Assembly (NCBI RefSeq): GCF_003334385.1
Contig: NZ_QOWN01000001.1
Reading direction: 5' to 3' (one strand)
Length of the DNA stretch: 64,000 bases
DNA from: Escherichia coli
Lineage (GTDB): Bacteria; Pseudomonadota; Gammaproteobacteria; Enterobacterales; Enterobacteriaceae
The notes under the pieces are model-generated. The model was not told where the DNA came from. It ran no database searches and worked only from the letters and a program-made list of their open reading frames with translations. This document shows positions 2,590-46,383 of this stretch, in pieces. Made by a program: the position numbers and the translations under genes. Position 1 is the first letter of the stretch; every line of letters starts with the position of its first letter.

Positions 2590-3402
<813 letters not shown>

Positions 3403-3416
3403 TTCAGGAGTGCGTT

Positions 3417-4142
3417 ATGGACAGTCTCAATCTTAATAAACATATTTCCGGCCAGTTCAACGCCGAACTGGAAAGTATCCGCACGCAGGTGATGACCATG
3501 GGCGGCATGGTGGAGCAGCAGCTTTCTGATGCAATCACCGCGATGCATAACCAGGACAGCGATCTGGCGAAGCGCGTCATCGAAGGCGACAAGAACGTCA
3601 ACATGATGGAAGTGGCGATCGATGAAGCCTGCGTGCGCATTATCGCCAAACGTCAGCCGACGGCGAGCGACCTGCGACTGGTTATGGTGATCAGTAAAAC
3701 CATTGCCGAGCTGGAGCGTATTGGCGACGTGGCGGACAAAATCTGCCGTACTGCGCTGGAGAAATTCTCCCAGCAGCATCAGCCGTTGCTGGTAAGTCTG
3801 GAGTCGCTGGGCCGTCATACCATCCAGATGCTGCACGACGTGCTGGACGCGTTCGCGCGGATGGACATTGACGAAGCGGTACGTATTTATCGTGAAGATA
3901 AAAAAGTCGATCAGGAATACGAAGGTATTGTTCGTCAACTGATGACCTACATGATGGAAGATTCGCGTACCATTCCGAGCGTACTTACTGCGCTGTTCTG
4001 CGCGCGTTCTATCGAACGTATTGGCGACCGCTGCCAGAATATTTGTGAGTTTATCTTCTACTACGTGAAGGGGCAGGATTTCCGTCACGTCGGTGGCGAT
4101 GAGCTGGATAAACTGCTGGCGGGGAAAGATAGCGACAAATAA
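3417..4142 (+). CDS. phoU: Phosphate signalling regulator PhoU
   Basis: 241 aa from ATG at 3417 ([14 protein letters not shown]...); the ORF-track start at 3399 is probably upstream read-through. Confidence 0.93.
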
Positions 4143-27265: not shown

Positions 27266-28669
27266 GTGTCACTTTCGCTTTGGCAGCAGTGTCTTGCCCG
27301 ATTGCAGGATGAGTTACCAGCCACAGAATTCAGTATGTGGATACGCCCATTGCAGGCGGAACTGAGCGATAACACGCTGGCCCTGTACGCGCCAAACCGT
27401 TTTGTCCTCGATTGGGTACGGGACAAGTACCTTAATAATATCAATGGACTGCTAACCAGTTTCTGCGGAGCGGATGCCCCACAGCTGCGTTTTGAAGTCG
27501 GCACCAAACCGGTGACGCAAACGCCACAAGCGGCAGTGACGAGCAACGTCGCGGCCCCTGCACAGGTGGCGCAAACGCAGCCGCAACGTGCTGCGCCTTC
27601 TACGCGCTCAGGTTGGGATAACGTCCCGGCCCCGGCAGAACCGACCTATCGTTCTAACGTAAACGTCAAACACACGTTTGATAACTTCGTTGAAGGTAAA
27701 TCTAACCAACTGGCGCGCGCGGCGGCTCGCCAGGTGGCGGATAACCCTGGCGGTGCCTATAACCCGTTGTTCCTTTATGGCGGCACGGGTCTGGGTAAAA
27801 CTCACCTGCTGCATGCGGTGGGTAACGGCATTATGGCGCGCAAGCCGAATGCCAAAGTGGTTTATATGCACTCCGAGCGCTTTGTTCAGGACATGGTTAA
27901 AGCCCTGCAAAACAACGCGATCGAAGAGTTTAAACGCTACTACCGTTCCGTAGATGCACTGCTGATCGACGATATTCAGTTTTTTGCTAATAAAGAACGA
28001 TCTCAGGAAGAGTTTTTCCACACCTTCAACGCCCTGCTGGAAGGTAATCAACAGATCATTCTCACCTCGGATCGCTATCCGAAAGAGATCAACGGCGTTG
28101 AGGATCGTTTGAAATCCCGCTTCGGTTGGGGACTGACTGTGGCGATCGAACCGCCAGAGCTGGAAACCCGTGTGGCGATCCTGATGAAAAAGGCCGACGA
28201 AAACGACATTCGTTTGCCGGGCGAAGTGGCGTTCTTTATCGCCAAGCGTCTACGATCTAACGTACGTGAGCTGGAAGGGGCGCTGAACCGCGTCATTGCC
28301 AATGCCAACTTTACCGGACGGGCGATCACCATCGACTTCGTGCGTGAGGCGCTGCGCGACTTGCTGGCATTGCAGGAAAAACTGGTCACCATCGACAATA
28401 TTCAGAAGACGGTGGCGGAGTACTACAAGATCAAAGTCGCGGATCTCCTTTCCAAGCGTCGATCCCGCTCGGTGGCGCGTCCGCGCCAGATGGCGATGGC
28501 GCTGGCGAAAGAGCTGACTAACCACAGTCTGCCGGAGATTGGCGATGCGTTTGGTGGCCGTGACCACACGACGGTGCTTCATGCCTGCCGTAAGATCGAG
28601 CAGTTGCGTGAAGAGAGCCACGATATCAAAGAAGATTTTTCAAATTTAATCAGAACATTGTCATCGTAA
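27266..28669 (+). CDS. dnaA: Chromosomal replication initiator DnaA
   Basis: 467 aa from GTG at 27266 ([16 protein letters not shown]...); AAA+ Walker [11 protein letters not shown] and C-terminal DNA-binding domain. Confidence 0.95.
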
Positions 28670-33311: not shown

Positions 33312-33410
33312 GCCTGATGCGCTACGCTTATCAGGCCTACGAAAATCTTGCAATGTATTGAATTTTCATGATTTTGTAGGCCGGATAAGGCGTTCACGCC
33401 GCATCCGGCA
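33312..33410. repeat. BIME: two inverted REP elements downstream of gyrB
   Basis: 33312-33340 gcctgatgcgctacgcttatcaggcctac and 33376-33410 gtaggccggataaggcgttcacgccgcatccggca in opposite orientation. Confidence 0.8.
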
Positions 33411-42934: not shown

Positions 42935-43267
42935 TCAGTTATCAGGCATTCTGGCCGGTGGAATAACCGCATTGGTGGCTTGCGCGTTGGCTTCGCTTTT
43001 TTCAACGCGCGAGCGCACCGAGCTGTCTTTGCGGAACACATCCCACGGCAGTAAAAGCGTGTCCATCACAGCGGTAAACGGCATATCGAGAATCGCCAGC
43101 GACTTAGTGCCCCAGTTGGTTTCATCGTCGCCAATCATGGTTGCGCTGGCGCGGGTGCCGGGATACGTTCCTTCTTTCCCTCCGGTATGGGACATCACGC
43201 TGGAGCATCCTCCGAGTAATGTCATTCCGCTGCATATCATGAACGCTAACAACACATTTCTTATCAT
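42935..43267 (-). CDS. yidQ: Putative lipoprotein YidQ
   Basis: 110 aa from ATG at 43267 (MIRNVLLAFMICSGMTLLGGCSS: signal peptide plus lipobox). Confidence 0.82.
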   Translation of the reverse strand: MIRNVLLAFMICSGMTLLGGCSSVMSHTGGKEGTYPGTRASATMIGDDETNWGTKSLAILDMPFTAVMDTLLLPWDVFRKDSSVRSRVEKSEANAQATNAVIPPARMPDN

Positions 43268-43441
43268 AATAAATTCATCTGTTGATCGTGGGTGTTGGCC
43301 TGATGAGTTATAGCGATCCCTTGCTGAAAATAACATCATCATTACGTCGCACTGTGGCGGCTATCGCACTTTAACGTTTCGTGCTGCCCCCTCAGTCTAT
43401 GCAATAGACCATAAACTGCAAAAAAAAGTCCGCTGATAAGG

Positions 43442-43470
43442 CTTGAAAAGTTCATTTCCAGACCCATTTT
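43442..43470 (+). promoter_or_regulatory. Sigma-32 heat-shock promoter of ibpAB
   Basis: cttgaaaagttcatttccagacccattttt: -35 cTTGAAA and -10 region gaCCCATtTtt match the sigma-32 consensus with appropriate spacing. Confidence 0.75.
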
Positions 43471-43572
43471 TACATCGTAGCCGATGAGGACGCGCCTGAT
43501 GGGTGTTCTGGCTACCTGACCTGTCCATTGTGGAAGGTCTTACATTCTCGCTGATTTCAGGAGCTATTGATT

Positions 43573-43986
43573 ATGCGTAACTTTGATTTATCCCCGCTTT
43601 ACCGTTCTGCTATTGGATTTGACCGTTTGTTTAACCACTTAGAAAACAACCAGAGCCAGAGTAATGGCGGCTACCCTCCGTATAACGTTGAACTGGTAGA
43701 CGAAAACCATTACCGCATTGCTATCGCTGTGGCTGGTTTTGCTGAGAGCGAACTGGAAATTACCGCCCAGGATAATCTGCTGGTGGTGAAAGGTGCTCAC
43801 GCCGACGAACAAAAAGAGCGCACCTATCTGTACCAGGGCATCGCTGAACGCAACTTTGAACGCAAATTCCAGTTAGCTGAGAACATTCATGTTCGTGGTG
43901 CTAACCTGGTAAATGGTTTGCTGTATATCGATCTCGAACGCGTGATTCCGGAAGCGAAAAAACCGCGCCGTATCGAAATCAACTAA
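43573..43986 (+). CDS. ibpA: Small heat-shock protein IbpA
   Basis: 137 aa from ATG at 43573 ([20 protein letters not shown]...); alpha-crystallin domain. Confidence 0.95.
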
Positions 43987-44097
43987 TTCCCTAAGGCCGC
44001 CTGGCGCGGCCTGACATCTCCATGCTCGCCGTCAGGGAGCATATGCGAATCTTCGGATTTGCAGGTACTTACTCGCTTCTTAGAAGGAGAAATGACT

Positions 44098-44526
44098 ATG
44101 CGTAACTTCGATTTATCCCCACTGATGCGTCAATGGATCGGTTTTGACAAACTGGCCAACGCACTGCAAAACGCCGGTGAAAGCCAGAGCTTCCCGCCGT
44201 ACAACATTGAGAAAAGCGACGATAACCACTACCGCATTACCCTTGCGCTGGCAGGTTTCCGTCAGGAAGATTTAGAGATTCAACTGGAAGGTACGCGCCT
44301 GAGCGTAAAAGGCACGCCGGAGCAGCCAAAAGAAGAGAAAAAATGGCTGCATCAAGGGCTTATGAATCAGCCATTTAGCCTGAGCTTTACGCTGGCTGAA
44401 AATATGGAAGTCTCTGGCGCAACCTTCGTAAACGGTTTACTGCATATTGATTTAATTCGTAATGAGCCTGAACCCATCGCAGCGCAGCGTATCGCTATCA
44501 GCGAACGTCCCGCGTTAAATAGCTAA
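44098..44526 (+). CDS. ibpB: Small heat-shock protein IbpB
   Basis: 142 aa from ATG at 44098 ([20 protein letters not shown]...); paralogue of ibpA. Confidence 0.95.
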
Positions 44527-44541
44527 CTAGCTATTCTCTTT

Positions 44542-44570
44542 GCCCCGCCATTCTGGTGGGGCTTTTTTTG
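44542..44570 (+). terminator. Intrinsic terminator after ibpB
   Basis: ccccgccattctggtggggcttttttt. Confidence 0.7.
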
Positions 44571-44721
44571 TCTTACTTACTCAACAATGCGTTAAATTTC
44601 GACTGTTTAAGATATTTCGGCACGTTCTTTCCCGTGATAATGTGCGCTATAAGGCAAATCTGCTTCACCGATTCAGCCATAATCCGTAGCAATTAAAATG
44701 TTATCTCAAGAGAAATGGACG

Positions 44722-46383
44722 ATGAGTGATATAGCATTAACGGTCAGTATTCTGGCTTTGGTGGCAGTCGTCGGTTTGTTTATCGGCAACGTCAAATTTC
44801 GCGGCATAGGATTAGGTATTGGCGGCGTGCTGTTTGGTGGGATCATCGTCGGCCATTTTGTTTCTCAGGCGGGGATGACATTAAGTAGCGATATGCTGCA
44901 TGTTATTCAGGAATTTGGCCTGATCCTGTTCGTTTATACTATCGGGATTCAGGTAGGGCCGGGCTTCTTTGCCTCATTGCGCGTCTCCGGATTACGCCTC
45001 AACCTGTTTGCTGTTCTGATCGTCATCATCGGTGGTCTGGTTACCGCCATCCTGCATAAACTGTTTGATATTCCACTGCCGGTAGTGCTGGGGATTTTCT
45101 CCGGTGCGGTTACCAATACGCCAGCGCTGGGGGCAGGGCAGCAGATTTTGCGCGACCTGGGTACACCAATGGAAATGGTCGATCAGATGGGGATGAGTTA
45201 CGCGATGGCGTATCCATTCGGCATTTGCGGGATTTTGTTCACCATGTGGATGTTGCGGGTTATTTTCCGCGTCAATGTCGAGACAGAAGCTCAGCAGCAC
45301 GAGTCTTCACGCACCAATGGCGGCGCGCTGATCAAGACTATCAATATTCGCGTTGAGAACCCTAACCTGCATGATTTAGCCATTAAAGATGTACCGATTC
45401 TCAACGGCGACAAAATTATCTGCTCGCGTCTGAAACGCGAAGAAACCCTAAAAGTTCCTTCGCCAGATACCATTATCCAACTGGGCGATTTGCTGCATCT
45501 GGTGGGTCAGCCAGCGGATTTACATAATGCGCAACTGGTGATTGGTCAGGAGGTCGATACTTCGCTGTCCACGAAAGGCACTGATTTGCGCGTCGAGCGT
45601 GTGGTGGTCACCAATGAAAACGTGCTCGGAAAACGTATTCGCGACCTGCACTTTAAAGAACGCTATGACGTTGTTATCTCGCGCCTGAACCGTGCCGGGG
45701 TCGAACTGGTCGCCAGTGGCGATATCAGCCTGCAGTTCGGCGATATCCTCAATCTGGTGGGGCGTCCGTCCGCAATTGATGCCGTTGCCAATGTGCTGGG
45801 GAATGCGCAGCAAAAACTGCAACAGGTTCAGATGCTGCCAGTGTTTATTGGCATCGGGCTAGGCGTATTGTTAGGTTCTATTCCCGTCTTTGTGCCAGGA
45901 TTCCCGGCCGCGTTGAAACTGGGGCTGGCGGGCGGACCGCTGATTATGGCGTTGATCCTCGGGCGTATCGGCAGTATCGGCAAGCTGTACTGGTTTATGC
46001 CGCCAAGCGCCAACCTCGCGCTGCGGGAGCTGGGGATCGTGCTGTTCCTCTCGGTCGTTGGTCTGAAATCTGGTGGGGATTTTGTGAATACCCTGGTCAA
46101 TGGCGAAGGGCTAAGCTGGATTGGTTATGGTGCCCTGATCACCGCCGTTCCGCTGATTACTGTTGGCATTCTGGCGCGGATGTTAGCCAAAATGAATTAC
46201 CTGACCATGTGCGGGATGCTGGCAGGTTCCATGACCGATCCTCCGGCGCTGGCGTTTGCTAATAATCTTCATCCAACCAGCGGTGCGGCGGCGCTCTCTT
46301 ACGCCACTGTCTATCCGTTGGTAATGTTCCTGCGCATTATCACCCCCCAATTACTGGCGGTGCTCTTCTGGAGTATCGGTTAA
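44722..46383 (+). CDS. yidE: Putative transporter YidE (AAE-type, two cytoplasmic TrkA-C-like domains)
   Basis: 553 aa from ATG at 44722 ([18 protein letters not shown]...); membrane halves flank soluble repeat domains. Confidence 0.88.

Follow-up and report, generated by a model that had tools for sequence, protein, structure and literature searches.

As shown in Table 1, two small heat-shock genes, ibpA and ibpB, lie in tandem on the plus strand of a 64-kb stretch of Escherichia coli DNA (the whole of this stretch is called the window here), behind a sigma-32-type promoter and ahead of an intrinsic terminator, with a structured leader before each gene. The reading frame of ibpA runs from an ATG at 43573 to a stop codon at 43984–43986, as read from the sequence, and that of ibpB from an ATG at 44098 to a stop codon at 44524–44526. 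The products are identified as the small heat-shock chaperones IbpA and IbpB because both NCBIfam equivalog scores exceed the curated cut-offs and because RefSeq annotation of identical DNA gives the order yidQ, ROSE element, ibpA, ibpB and yidE. Many E. coli chromosomes match positions 43300–44620 of the window with 100% identity, and the region is carried by 5420 of the 5426 complete genomes. A terminator scan reported a single site, at 44542, and none between ibpA and ibpB. A first-pass annotation of this DNA had called an ibpAB heat-shock operon, which the equivalog scores and the RefSeq annotation of identical DNA bear out; the span that it assigned, 43343–44100, closes at the ibpB start codon, while the operon reaches the ibpB stop codon and the terminator beyond it. 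The locus is almost certainly the small heat-shock operon ibpA-ibpB of E. coli, whose several layers of control are already known.

Table 1. Features of the ibpA-ibpB locus; positions are those of the 64-kb window.
Feature	Position	Strand	Description	Basis
Sigma-32-type promoter	43442–43470	+	−35 CTTGAAA (43442–43448), 13-nt spacer, −10 ACCCATTTT (43462–43470)	Sequence read
ibpA 5' leader	43477–43572	+	About 96 nt; fold −34.1 kcal/mol	5' end inferred from the promoter
ibpA leader stem-loop 1	43477–43515	+	Stable, dG37 −18.5 kcal/mol	Inner helix: compensatory changes in 3/9 pairs
Rfam ROSE_2 (RF01832) match	43507–43579	+	Full length, model positions 1–73	100.4 bits, gathering score 65, E = 9.7e-22
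ibpA leader stem-loop 2	43518–43539	+	Stable, dG37 −9.0 kcal/mol	Compensatory changes in 3/9 pairs; 100% of cells paired
ibpA stem-loop 3 (thermosensor)	43547–43563	+	CUC-G-CUG/auuu/CAG-GAG; dG37 about −4.1 kcal/mol	Folds; ROSE_2 consensus structure
ibpA CDS	43573–43986	+	137 aa	NCBIfam NF008013 equivalog, 295.5 bits (cut-off 212); RefSeq annotation
Sigma-54-like site	43907–43922	+	TGGTAAATGGTTTGCT, inside ibpA	Published, now disputed, ibpB sigma-54 promoter
ibpA-ibpB intergenic leader	43987–44097	+	111 nt, four hairpins; fold −40.4 kcal/mol	RNAalifold consensus
Spacer hairpin 1	43994–44012	+	AGGCCGC-cuggc-GCGGCCU, 7 bp, 5-nt loop	Stable, dG37 −12.8 kcal/mol
Spacer hairpin 2	44022–44042	+	dG37 −10.1 kcal/mol	Compensatory changes in 2/8 pairs; 99% of cells paired
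Spacer hairpin 3	44044–44063	+	dG37 −8.4 kcal/mol	Compensatory changes in 6/7 pairs; 100% of cells paired
Spacer hairpin 4 (ibpB thermosensor)	44072–44089	+	CUC-G-CUUC/uua/GAAG-GAG; dG37 −4.0 kcal/mol	Folds
ibpB CDS	44098–44526	+	142 aa	NCBIfam NF008618 equivalog, 288.4 bits (cut-off 207); RefSeq annotation
Operon intrinsic terminator	44542–44569	+	9-bp G+C-rich stem (44542–44562), then TTTTTTT	Terminator scan

The promoter resembles those used by E. coli sigma-32 (RpoH). The consensus, as quoted in PMC3168786, is CTTGAAA-13/15 bp-CCCCAT, and the arrangement CTTGAAA-13 nt-ACCCAT found here matches it at 12 of 13 positions, the single difference being an A for the first C of the −10 element. 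The pattern CTTGAAA-N12-16-CCCATNT occurs once on the two strands of the window (0.01 expected from shuffles), and this sole site is the one at which the first-pass annotation had placed a sigma-32-type promoter, with coordinates that proved exact. Both the −35 and −10 elements are kept across 12 enterobacterial sequences, from Escherichia to Cronobacter, Klebsiella and Dryocola; the spacer between them varies. A scan of 43200–44750 for sigma-70 promoters returned no sites. It has been stated in the literature that ibpAB transcription depends on RpoH (bioRxiv 10.1101/2020.04.20.050740; PMC8155344). Judging from the position of the −10 element, transcription of ibpA would start at about 43477, 6–9 nt downstream, and the promoter would then give rise to a bicistronic ibpA-ibpB transcript that ends at the terminator.

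Counted from this probable start, the ibpA leader comes close to the length of roughly 90 nt estimated earlier. Of the 5418 E. coli genomes carrying the leader, 5385 have it at 99% identity or more, and it folds into three hairpins both as a single sequence and in the RNAalifold consensus; three stem-loops, SL1–SL3, have also been reported for it (bioRxiv 10.1101/2020.04.20.050740). In the definition of ROSE elements taken from PMC3669281 and applied here to both leaders, a small heat-shock gene has two to four hairpins in its 5' UTR, and the three hairpins of the ibpA leader fall within this range. The span of the ROSE_2 match carries the RefSeq annotation 'ROSE', and stem-loop 2 belongs to the ROSE_2 consensus. 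In stem-loop 3, which is invariant in 12 enterobacterial sequences, UCGCU at 43548–43552 pairs with the Shine–Dalgarno (SD) sequence AGGAG at 43559–43563 around the bulged G43550. The leader also scores 20.8 bits with ROSE_3, below the threshold of that family. The ibpA leader is a ROSE_2 RNA thermometer element, and as such it is already published; the enterobacterial ibpA ROSE-like thermometer (ROSE_2) is reportedly the subject of Waldminghaus et al. 2009.

Between ibpA and ibpB, the measured spacer length agrees with the roughly 110 nt given earlier. The one hairpin that the first-pass annotation had noted in the spacer, at 43997–44013, does exist, with coordinates that were somewhat off: it corresponds to hairpin 1, with 3 nt of the 5' arm clipped and a 1-nt overshoot at the other end. 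It is the first and a stable one of four hairpins, and not the thermosensor; the hairpin that masks the SD is hairpin 4, at 44072–44089, which had gone unmentioned. In hairpin 4, UCGCU at 44073–44077 pairs with the SD AAGGAG at 44084–44089 around a bulged G; its stems are invariant in 13 sequences, and its loop varies between UUA and AAA. The spacer thus has the ROSE-like features of lying directly 5' of a small heat-shock gene, with three extra hairpins ahead, and of a 3'-proximal hairpin in which a U(U/C)GCU motif pairs imperfectly with the SD. Its three top Rfam matches are the three ROSE families, each below its gathering score (ROSE 19.3 vs. 45, ROSE_3 18.5 vs. 43, and ROSE_2 15.2 vs. 65); no Rfam family covers the spacer, and it carries no RefSeq annotation. 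Hairpin 3 is deleted in one Citrobacter freundii genome, where the spacer is 88 nt long. A different pairing of the ibpB SD, with an upstream CUCC (around 44018–44021) in the E. coli centroid fold, was set aside, as conservation of this CUCC does not extend beyond E. coli.

The comparative sample consisted of 12–13 enterobacterial sequences gathered by protein search, from cluster members and by exact-protein look-ups; ten loci were near-identical Salmonella. A degenerate IbpB N-terminus pattern run on a genome collection was too strict, its only matches being four genomes of Escherichia and two small heat-shock genes of alphaproteobacteria. In the spacer, 98.6% of cells are paired and both partners have changed in 8 pairs, where a slid-partner control gave no more than 3; in the ibpA leader, 98.5% of cells are paired and both partners have changed in 6 pairs, where the control gave no more than 1. 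None of 500 shuffles matched the observed covariation values of either leader. Both SD hairpins never vary in the 12–13 sequences, and because of this lack of variation the covariation analysis is silent on them. This silence is the one point in favour of regarding the hairpins as chance features of ordinary intergenic DNA, a reading whose probability is negligible. Against it, both leaders fold more stably than their dinucleotide shuffles (z = −2.76 for the ibpA leader and −2.63 for the spacer), compensatory changes accumulate to a level that no shuffle reached, the ROSE_2 match has E = 9.7e-22, and the motif CTCGCT-N5-9-AGGAG, expected 0.04 times in the 64-kb window, occurs there exactly twice, once ahead of each gene. 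Chance is thus already refuted by the fold, covariation, ROSE_2 and motif results.

It is reported, based on structure probing and reporter assays, that RNA thermometers are present in both the ibpA and the ibpB 5' UTR (bioRxiv 10.1101/2020.04.20.050740; PMC8155344). According to the passages of bioRxiv 10.1101/2020.04.20.050740, PMC3669281, PMC8155344 and PMC10410725 in which Gaubig, Waldminghaus and Narberhaus 2011 is cited, the ibpB thermometer lies in the ibpA-ibpB intergenic region and responds to temperature and to IbpA. The two leaders had been proposed as RNA-thermometer candidates from the sequence, and the proposal is supported by the ROSE_2 match of ibpA, by the SD-pairing 3' hairpin in each leader and by these published thermometers; structures sequestering the SD are predicted in both, in single-sequence folds as well as in the RNAalifold consensus of 12–13 species, so that the outcome named beforehand as refuting the proposal, a lack of such a structure in either leader, did not occur. 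The SD hairpins are the weakest helices of the two leaders (dG37 about −4 kcal/mol vs. −8.4 to −18.5 kcal/mol for the others), and from 30 to 42 °C they lose a further 1.6–1.9 kcal/mol (1.6 for ibpA). In a temperature series calculated with ViennaRNA over 20–50 °C, the nearest-neighbour model showed no sharp switch from 30 to 42 °C, with the SD mostly paired at all physiological temperatures; the series was taken neither for nor against thermometer behaviour. Taken in isolation, the SD hairpins are predicted to melt above 70 °C. For ibpA the outcome varies with the length of coding sequence that is folded along: when 15–20 nt of coding sequence are added to the ibpA SD hairpin, an alternative fold competes and the predicted SD accessibility is about 0.2–0.5; this accessibility shifts little with temperature, and inconsistently, going down in one construct and up in another.

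In the mechanism proposed for the operon, the two stable 5' hairpins of the ibpA leader are followed by a weak 3' hairpin (43547–43563) that would gate translation through the UCGCU/SD pairing with its bulged G, and the three stable hairpins of the spacer by a weak, like-built hairpin (44072–44089) that masks the ibpB SD. At low temperature the ribosome site would be closed; as the temperature rises, the weak hairpin would be open more often, and 30S subunits could bind. The same stem-loops may also serve as the platform on which IbpA represses translation of ibpA and ibpB until protein aggregates titrate it away. Three parts of this scheme, namely sigma-32 dependence, temperature-dependent melting and IbpA binding, are taken from the literature.

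Repression by IbpA was absent from the first-pass annotation; the literature describes the same stem-loops as the target of translational repression by this protein, Miwa et al. having reported that IbpA represses ibpA and ibpB translation via the 5' UTR stem-loops (bioRxiv 10.1101/2020.04.20.050740; PMC10410725). It could be argued from this that the stem-loops are mainly a binding platform for IbpA, with autogenous repression that aggregates relieve and a minor share left to temperature sensed directly by the RNA, and we regard this as rather unlikely, with evidence on both sides. Miwa et al. found that aggregates induce expression at 30–37 °C, where a thermometer would not act (bioRxiv 10.1101/2020.04.20.050740; PMC10410725); the energy model opens the SD hairpins only slightly from 30 to 42 °C, and covariation shows conservation of the upstream hairpins, none of which contacts the SD, in keeping with a role beyond simple melting. 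However, when the E. coli ibpA leader by itself was placed behind an arabinose promoter in a reporter, expression rose about 4-fold between 25 and 42 °C (PMC3669281), and the ROSE design, in which UCGCU and a bulged G face the SD, typifies a class for which melting has been directly shown. Moreover, the authors call the two mechanisms coupled, not exclusive (bioRxiv 10.1101/2020.04.20.050740). Temperature sensing by the SD hairpins together with IbpA feedback is kept as the reading of the two leaders.

Two further alternatives concern how ibpB comes to be transcribed. Spacer hairpin 1 might act as a terminator or attenuator, so that a monocistronic ibpA mRNA is made and ibpB expression is limited. 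The hairpin is stable and G+C-rich and begins 8 nt after the ibpA stop codon, from genus to genus its stem hardly changes and its loop does, and the level of IbpA is 3–10 times that of IbpB (PMC10410725), all of which would suit such a role. Nevertheless, position 44012 is followed by UGACAUCUCC and not by a U-tract, and the terminator scan called the 44542 site and not this hairpin; hairpin 1 was rejected as an intrinsic terminator because it has no U-run. A stabiliser of the 3' end after processing would be equally compatible with the data, and termination or attenuation here is considered improbable. RNA processing is reportedly listed by Gaubig 2011 as one layer of control.

The sigma-54-like site inside ibpA, a published and disputed ibpB promoter, was likewise missing from the first-pass annotation. 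If ibpB were transcribed mainly from this site, its leader would be the 5' UTR, of about 165 nt, of a separate mRNA, which appears very improbable. TGGTAAATGGTTTGCT agrees with TGGCACG-N4-TTGCW at 9 of 12 positions and contains GG-N10-GC, and the identical site is listed for ibpB, with ChIP enrichment, in a regulon study (PMC2831329, citing Kuczynska-Wisnik 2001). In genome-wide sigma-54 ChIP-seq, by contrast, only background signal was obtained and the promoter was called 'misannotated' (PMC4591121). The site lies in constrained codons; since these encode a conserved peptide, the conservation of its GG and GC is due to coding constraint, and four other Escherichia lineages have CTGC in place of the −12 TTGC. 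The terminator scan, with no site between the two genes, also argues against a separate ibpB mRNA, and the bicistronic transcript from the sigma-32 promoter remains the preferred reading.

Taken together, what the first-pass annotation observed is real and its interpretation is right, and it describes ordinary, already published biology with nothing new: the ibpAB operon, the sigma-32 promoter, the ROSE-like thermometer of ibpA, the thermometer of ibpB and IbpA autoregulation have all been published. Its value lies in the fact that a known regulatory architecture was recognised from raw sequence alone with near-exact coordinates. The analysis also points to a gap in curation: comparison clearly supports the ibpB leader, with four hairpins, two of which carry compensatory changes, and an invariant SD hairpin, and the leader is without an Rfam family, for which reason annotation pipelines miss it. 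Unlike the ibpB leader, the ibpA element receives automatic annotation in RefSeq.

With respect to known systems, the ibpA leader shows no difference from ROSE_2 (RF01832), the enterobacterial ibpA ROSE-like thermometer: it has exactly the sequence that was studied in E. coli as ROSE_2, with the same UCGCU anti-SD motif, bulged G and SD in the 3' hairpin, and it is the same element; the Rfam model spans SL2 and SL3 only, SL1 lying upstream of it. The spacer is likewise the same locus and sequence as the published ibpB thermometer, a leader of several stem-loops whose last hairpin masks the SD. Compared with each other, the two leaders, described as 'not identical' in PMC10410725, share the ROSE design in the last hairpin and differ in the three hairpins upstream of it in the spacer. 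They align at the blocks CCUGAC-U-UCCAU and UAC-UU-CUCGCU, and the ibpB leader may be a diverged duplicate of the ibpA leader. It is quite conceivable, if somewhat short of an even chance, that the spacer RNA forms a distinct and conserved four-hairpin element of Enterobacteriaceae, diverged by duplication from the ibpA ROSE, in which the three covarying upstream hairpins would have a function of their own beyond aiding the folding of the thermosensor, e.g., in binding IbpA, in processing or in protecting the 3' end of ibpA, with hairpin 3 dispensable in at least one C. freundii genome. Both leaders share with the rhizobial ROSE (RF00435) and the pseudomonad ROSE_3 (RF02523) the imperfect pairing of U(U/C)GCU with the SD, its position in the 3'-proximal hairpin and the association with small heat-shock genes, whereas the scores obtained with these two families are sub-threshold only and the number and sequence of their upstream hairpins differ.

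The reading of ibpAB in the first-pass annotation, as an operon with a sigma-32 promoter and thermometer-type leaders, was confirmed as an observation and supported as an interpretation. Many Escherichia coli chromosomes carry the DNA of 43300-44620 with 100% identity, and of 5426 complete E. coli genomes, 5420 have it in single copy; RefSeq features on identical DNA are yidR, yidQ (opposite strand), a 'ROSE' sequence feature, ibpA, ibpB and yidE. The promoter lies at exactly the coordinates proposed and resembles the sigma-32 consensus CTTGAAA-13/15 bp-CCCCAT (as quoted in PMC3168786). This pattern occurs once on both strands of the 64-kb window, against 0.01 expected from shuffles, and both elements are kept in Escherichia, Salmonella, Citrobacter, Klebsiella, Cronobacter and Dryocola, with a variable intervening spacer. 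The terminator scan found no site between ibpA and ibpB. An eight-A run (43420-43427), which may be an UP-element-like tract, lies ~15 nt 5' of the -35 element and is kept in 5/5 Escherichia sequences. Elsewhere in the window, Rfam matches above the gathering score include AsdA, the antisense RNA of dnaA mRNA (27776-27856, minus strand, 101.9 bits), and the ES036 (CssrF) sRNA (33333-33375, minus strand, 44.8 bits); istR (RF01400; 57748-57877, plus strand, 150.1 bits) marks the IstR antitoxin sRNA of the tisB/istR locus.

Features of the ibpAB region (dG37 in kcal/mol)
Feature	Position	Description	Score or basis
sigma-32-type promoter	43442-43470	CTTGAAA, 13 nt, ACCCATTTT	sequence read
ibpA SL1	43477-43515		dG37 -18.5
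ibpA SL2	43518-43539		dG37 -9.0
ibpA SL3	43547-43563	CUC-G-CUG/auuu/CAG-GAG	dG37 -4.1
ibpA ORF	43573-43986	137 aa	NCBIfam equivalog IbpA, 295.5 bits (cut-off 212)
sigma-54-like site	43907-43922 (+)	TGGTAAATGGTTTGCT, inside ibpA	GG-N10-GC, 9/12 consensus positions
spacer hairpin 1	43994-44012		dG37 -12.8
spacer hairpin 2	44022-44042		dG37 -10.1
spacer hairpin 3	44044-44063		dG37 -8.4
spacer hairpin 4	44072-44089	CUC-G-CUUC/uua/GAAG-GAG	dG37 -4.0
ibpB ORF	44098-44526	142 aa	NCBIfam equivalog IbpB, 288.4 bits (cut-off 207)
terminator-like site + T-run	44542-44562	3' of ibpB	terminator scan

A transcription start near 43477, inferred from the promoter, gives an ibpA leader of ~96 nt, so the earlier figure of roughly 90 nt was fair. 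The promoter and leader are ≥99% identical in 5385/5418 E. coli genomes, and 43507-43579 scores 100.4 bits over the full length of the Rfam ROSE_2 model (RF01832), whose gathering score is 65. Three hairpins form in the predicted fold of the complete leader (-34.1 kcal/mol, z = -2.76 relative to dinucleotide shuffles), matching the published description of stem-loops SL1-SL3 in this RNA (10.1101/2020.04.20.050740). The RNAalifold consensus of 12 sequences, which represent at least six genera, gave them again, with compensatory changes at three pairs in SL1 and three in SL2 and an invariant SL3. In the predicted SL3, the UCGCU motif, the defining mark of ROSE-like thermometers (PMC3669281), pairs with the Shine-Dalgarno (SD) sequence AGGAG around a bulged G.

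The ibpA-ibpB spacer, described as roughly 110 nt, measures 111 nt, is ≥99% identical in 4881/5418 E. coli genomes, and folds into four hairpins (-40.4 kcal/mol, z = -2.63). The hairpin first placed at 43997-44013 is real, but its true position is 43994-44012 (AGGCCGC-cuggc-GCGGCCU); it is the first of the four and has no contact with the ribosome-binding site. Hairpin 4 is predicted to share the design of SL3: it combines UCGCU and a bulged G with a 3' arm that holds the SD AAGGAG (44084-44089), 8 nt upstream of the AUG; CTCGCT-N5-9-AGGAG occurs at exactly these two sites in the window, against 0.04 expected. Among 13 distinct spacers, standard pairs fill 98.6% of cells and both-side changes occur in eight pairs, against at most three with slid pairing partners, and 0/500 shuffles match these values. 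Compensatory changes affect 6/7 pairs of hairpin 3 and 2/8 of hairpin 2; hairpin 1 keeps its stem with a variable loop, and hairpin 4 has invariant stems with a UUA or AAA loop. In a Citrobacter freundii locus (L010, 1913-2000) the spacer is 88 nt, with hairpin 3 and its 3' flank deleted and the other three hairpins retained (1, 2 and that of the SD), so at least that genome can do without hairpin 3. The E. coli centroid fold offers an alternative partner for the SD (44086-44089), an upstream CUCC between hairpins 1 and 2 (44017-44021); this pairing is probably incidental, since the CUCC is conserved only within E. coli.

An in-frame ATG (44092-44094; ATGACTATG), 6 nt 5' of the ibpB start, gave a 144-aa IbpB in older annotations, which accounts for the '-185' offset in PMC2831329. 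Because a mere 2 nt separate this ATG from the SD, and Klebsiella, Cronobacter and Dryocola do not keep it, 44098 is the true start. The same paper lists TGGTAAATGGTTTGCT as the ibpB sigma-54 promoter, a site absent from the first-pass annotation, as was IbpA repression; later genome-wide ChIP-seq gave only background signal there, and the site has been termed misannotated (PMC4591121). Other Escherichia lineages have CTGC in place of its -12 TTGC. Downstream contexts vary: a Klebsiella contig (L023, 2596-3414) has a Bro-N-domain gene after ibpB in place of yidE, perhaps through insertion of a prophage or island, and in Cronobacter (L022, 2029-3291) a 161-aa ibpB product is followed by a GntR-family gene. 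A degenerate 11-residue IbpB N-terminal pattern also matched small heat-shock genes in two alphaproteobacteria (L006, L007), indicating strong conservation of that motif; the L006 product (Kordiimonas laminariae, 3143-3553) is 55% identical to IbpA.

Folding, the check proposed in the first-pass annotation, predicted SD-sequestering structures in both leaders. In the energy model, no other helix of either leader is nearly as weak as its SD hairpin, which loses 1.6-1.9 kcal/mol from 30 to 42 °C, in line with 'stable and unstable structural elements'. The same model gave no sharp switch: the computed melting points of the isolated SD hairpins exceed 70 °C, the SD is mostly paired at all physiological temperatures, and predicted ibpA SD accessibility varies with the length of coding sequence included. 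Such computation cannot by itself establish thermometer behaviour, which rests on published experiments with identical sequence. It has been reported that a reporter carrying the ibpA leader behind an arabinose promoter is induced 4-fold between 25 and 42 °C (PMC3669281), and both leaders were examined by probing and reporter assays (10.1101/2020.04.20.050740; PMC8155344). IbpA protein also represses ibpA and ibpB translation, for which the leader stem-loops are required, and repression is relieved once aggregates titrate IbpA (10.1101/2020.04.20.050740; PMC10410725); two coupled controls therefore act through the leaders.

All of this regulatory architecture is already known. The mildly useful residue is that the published ibpB leader has no Rfam family and the spacer no annotated RefSeq feature; the comparative evidence would support curating a family. 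In Rfam, the spacer scores best with the three ROSE families but reaches the threshold of none: ROSE gives 19.3 against 45, ROSE_3 18.5 against 43 and ROSE_2 15.2 against 65. Two blocks, CCUGAC-U-UCCAU and UAC-UU-CUCGCU, align between the leaders, and our reading from sequence is that the ibpB leader arose by duplication of the ibpA leader and then diverged. Although it falls outside every curated ROSE family, its last hairpin is ROSE-like in design.
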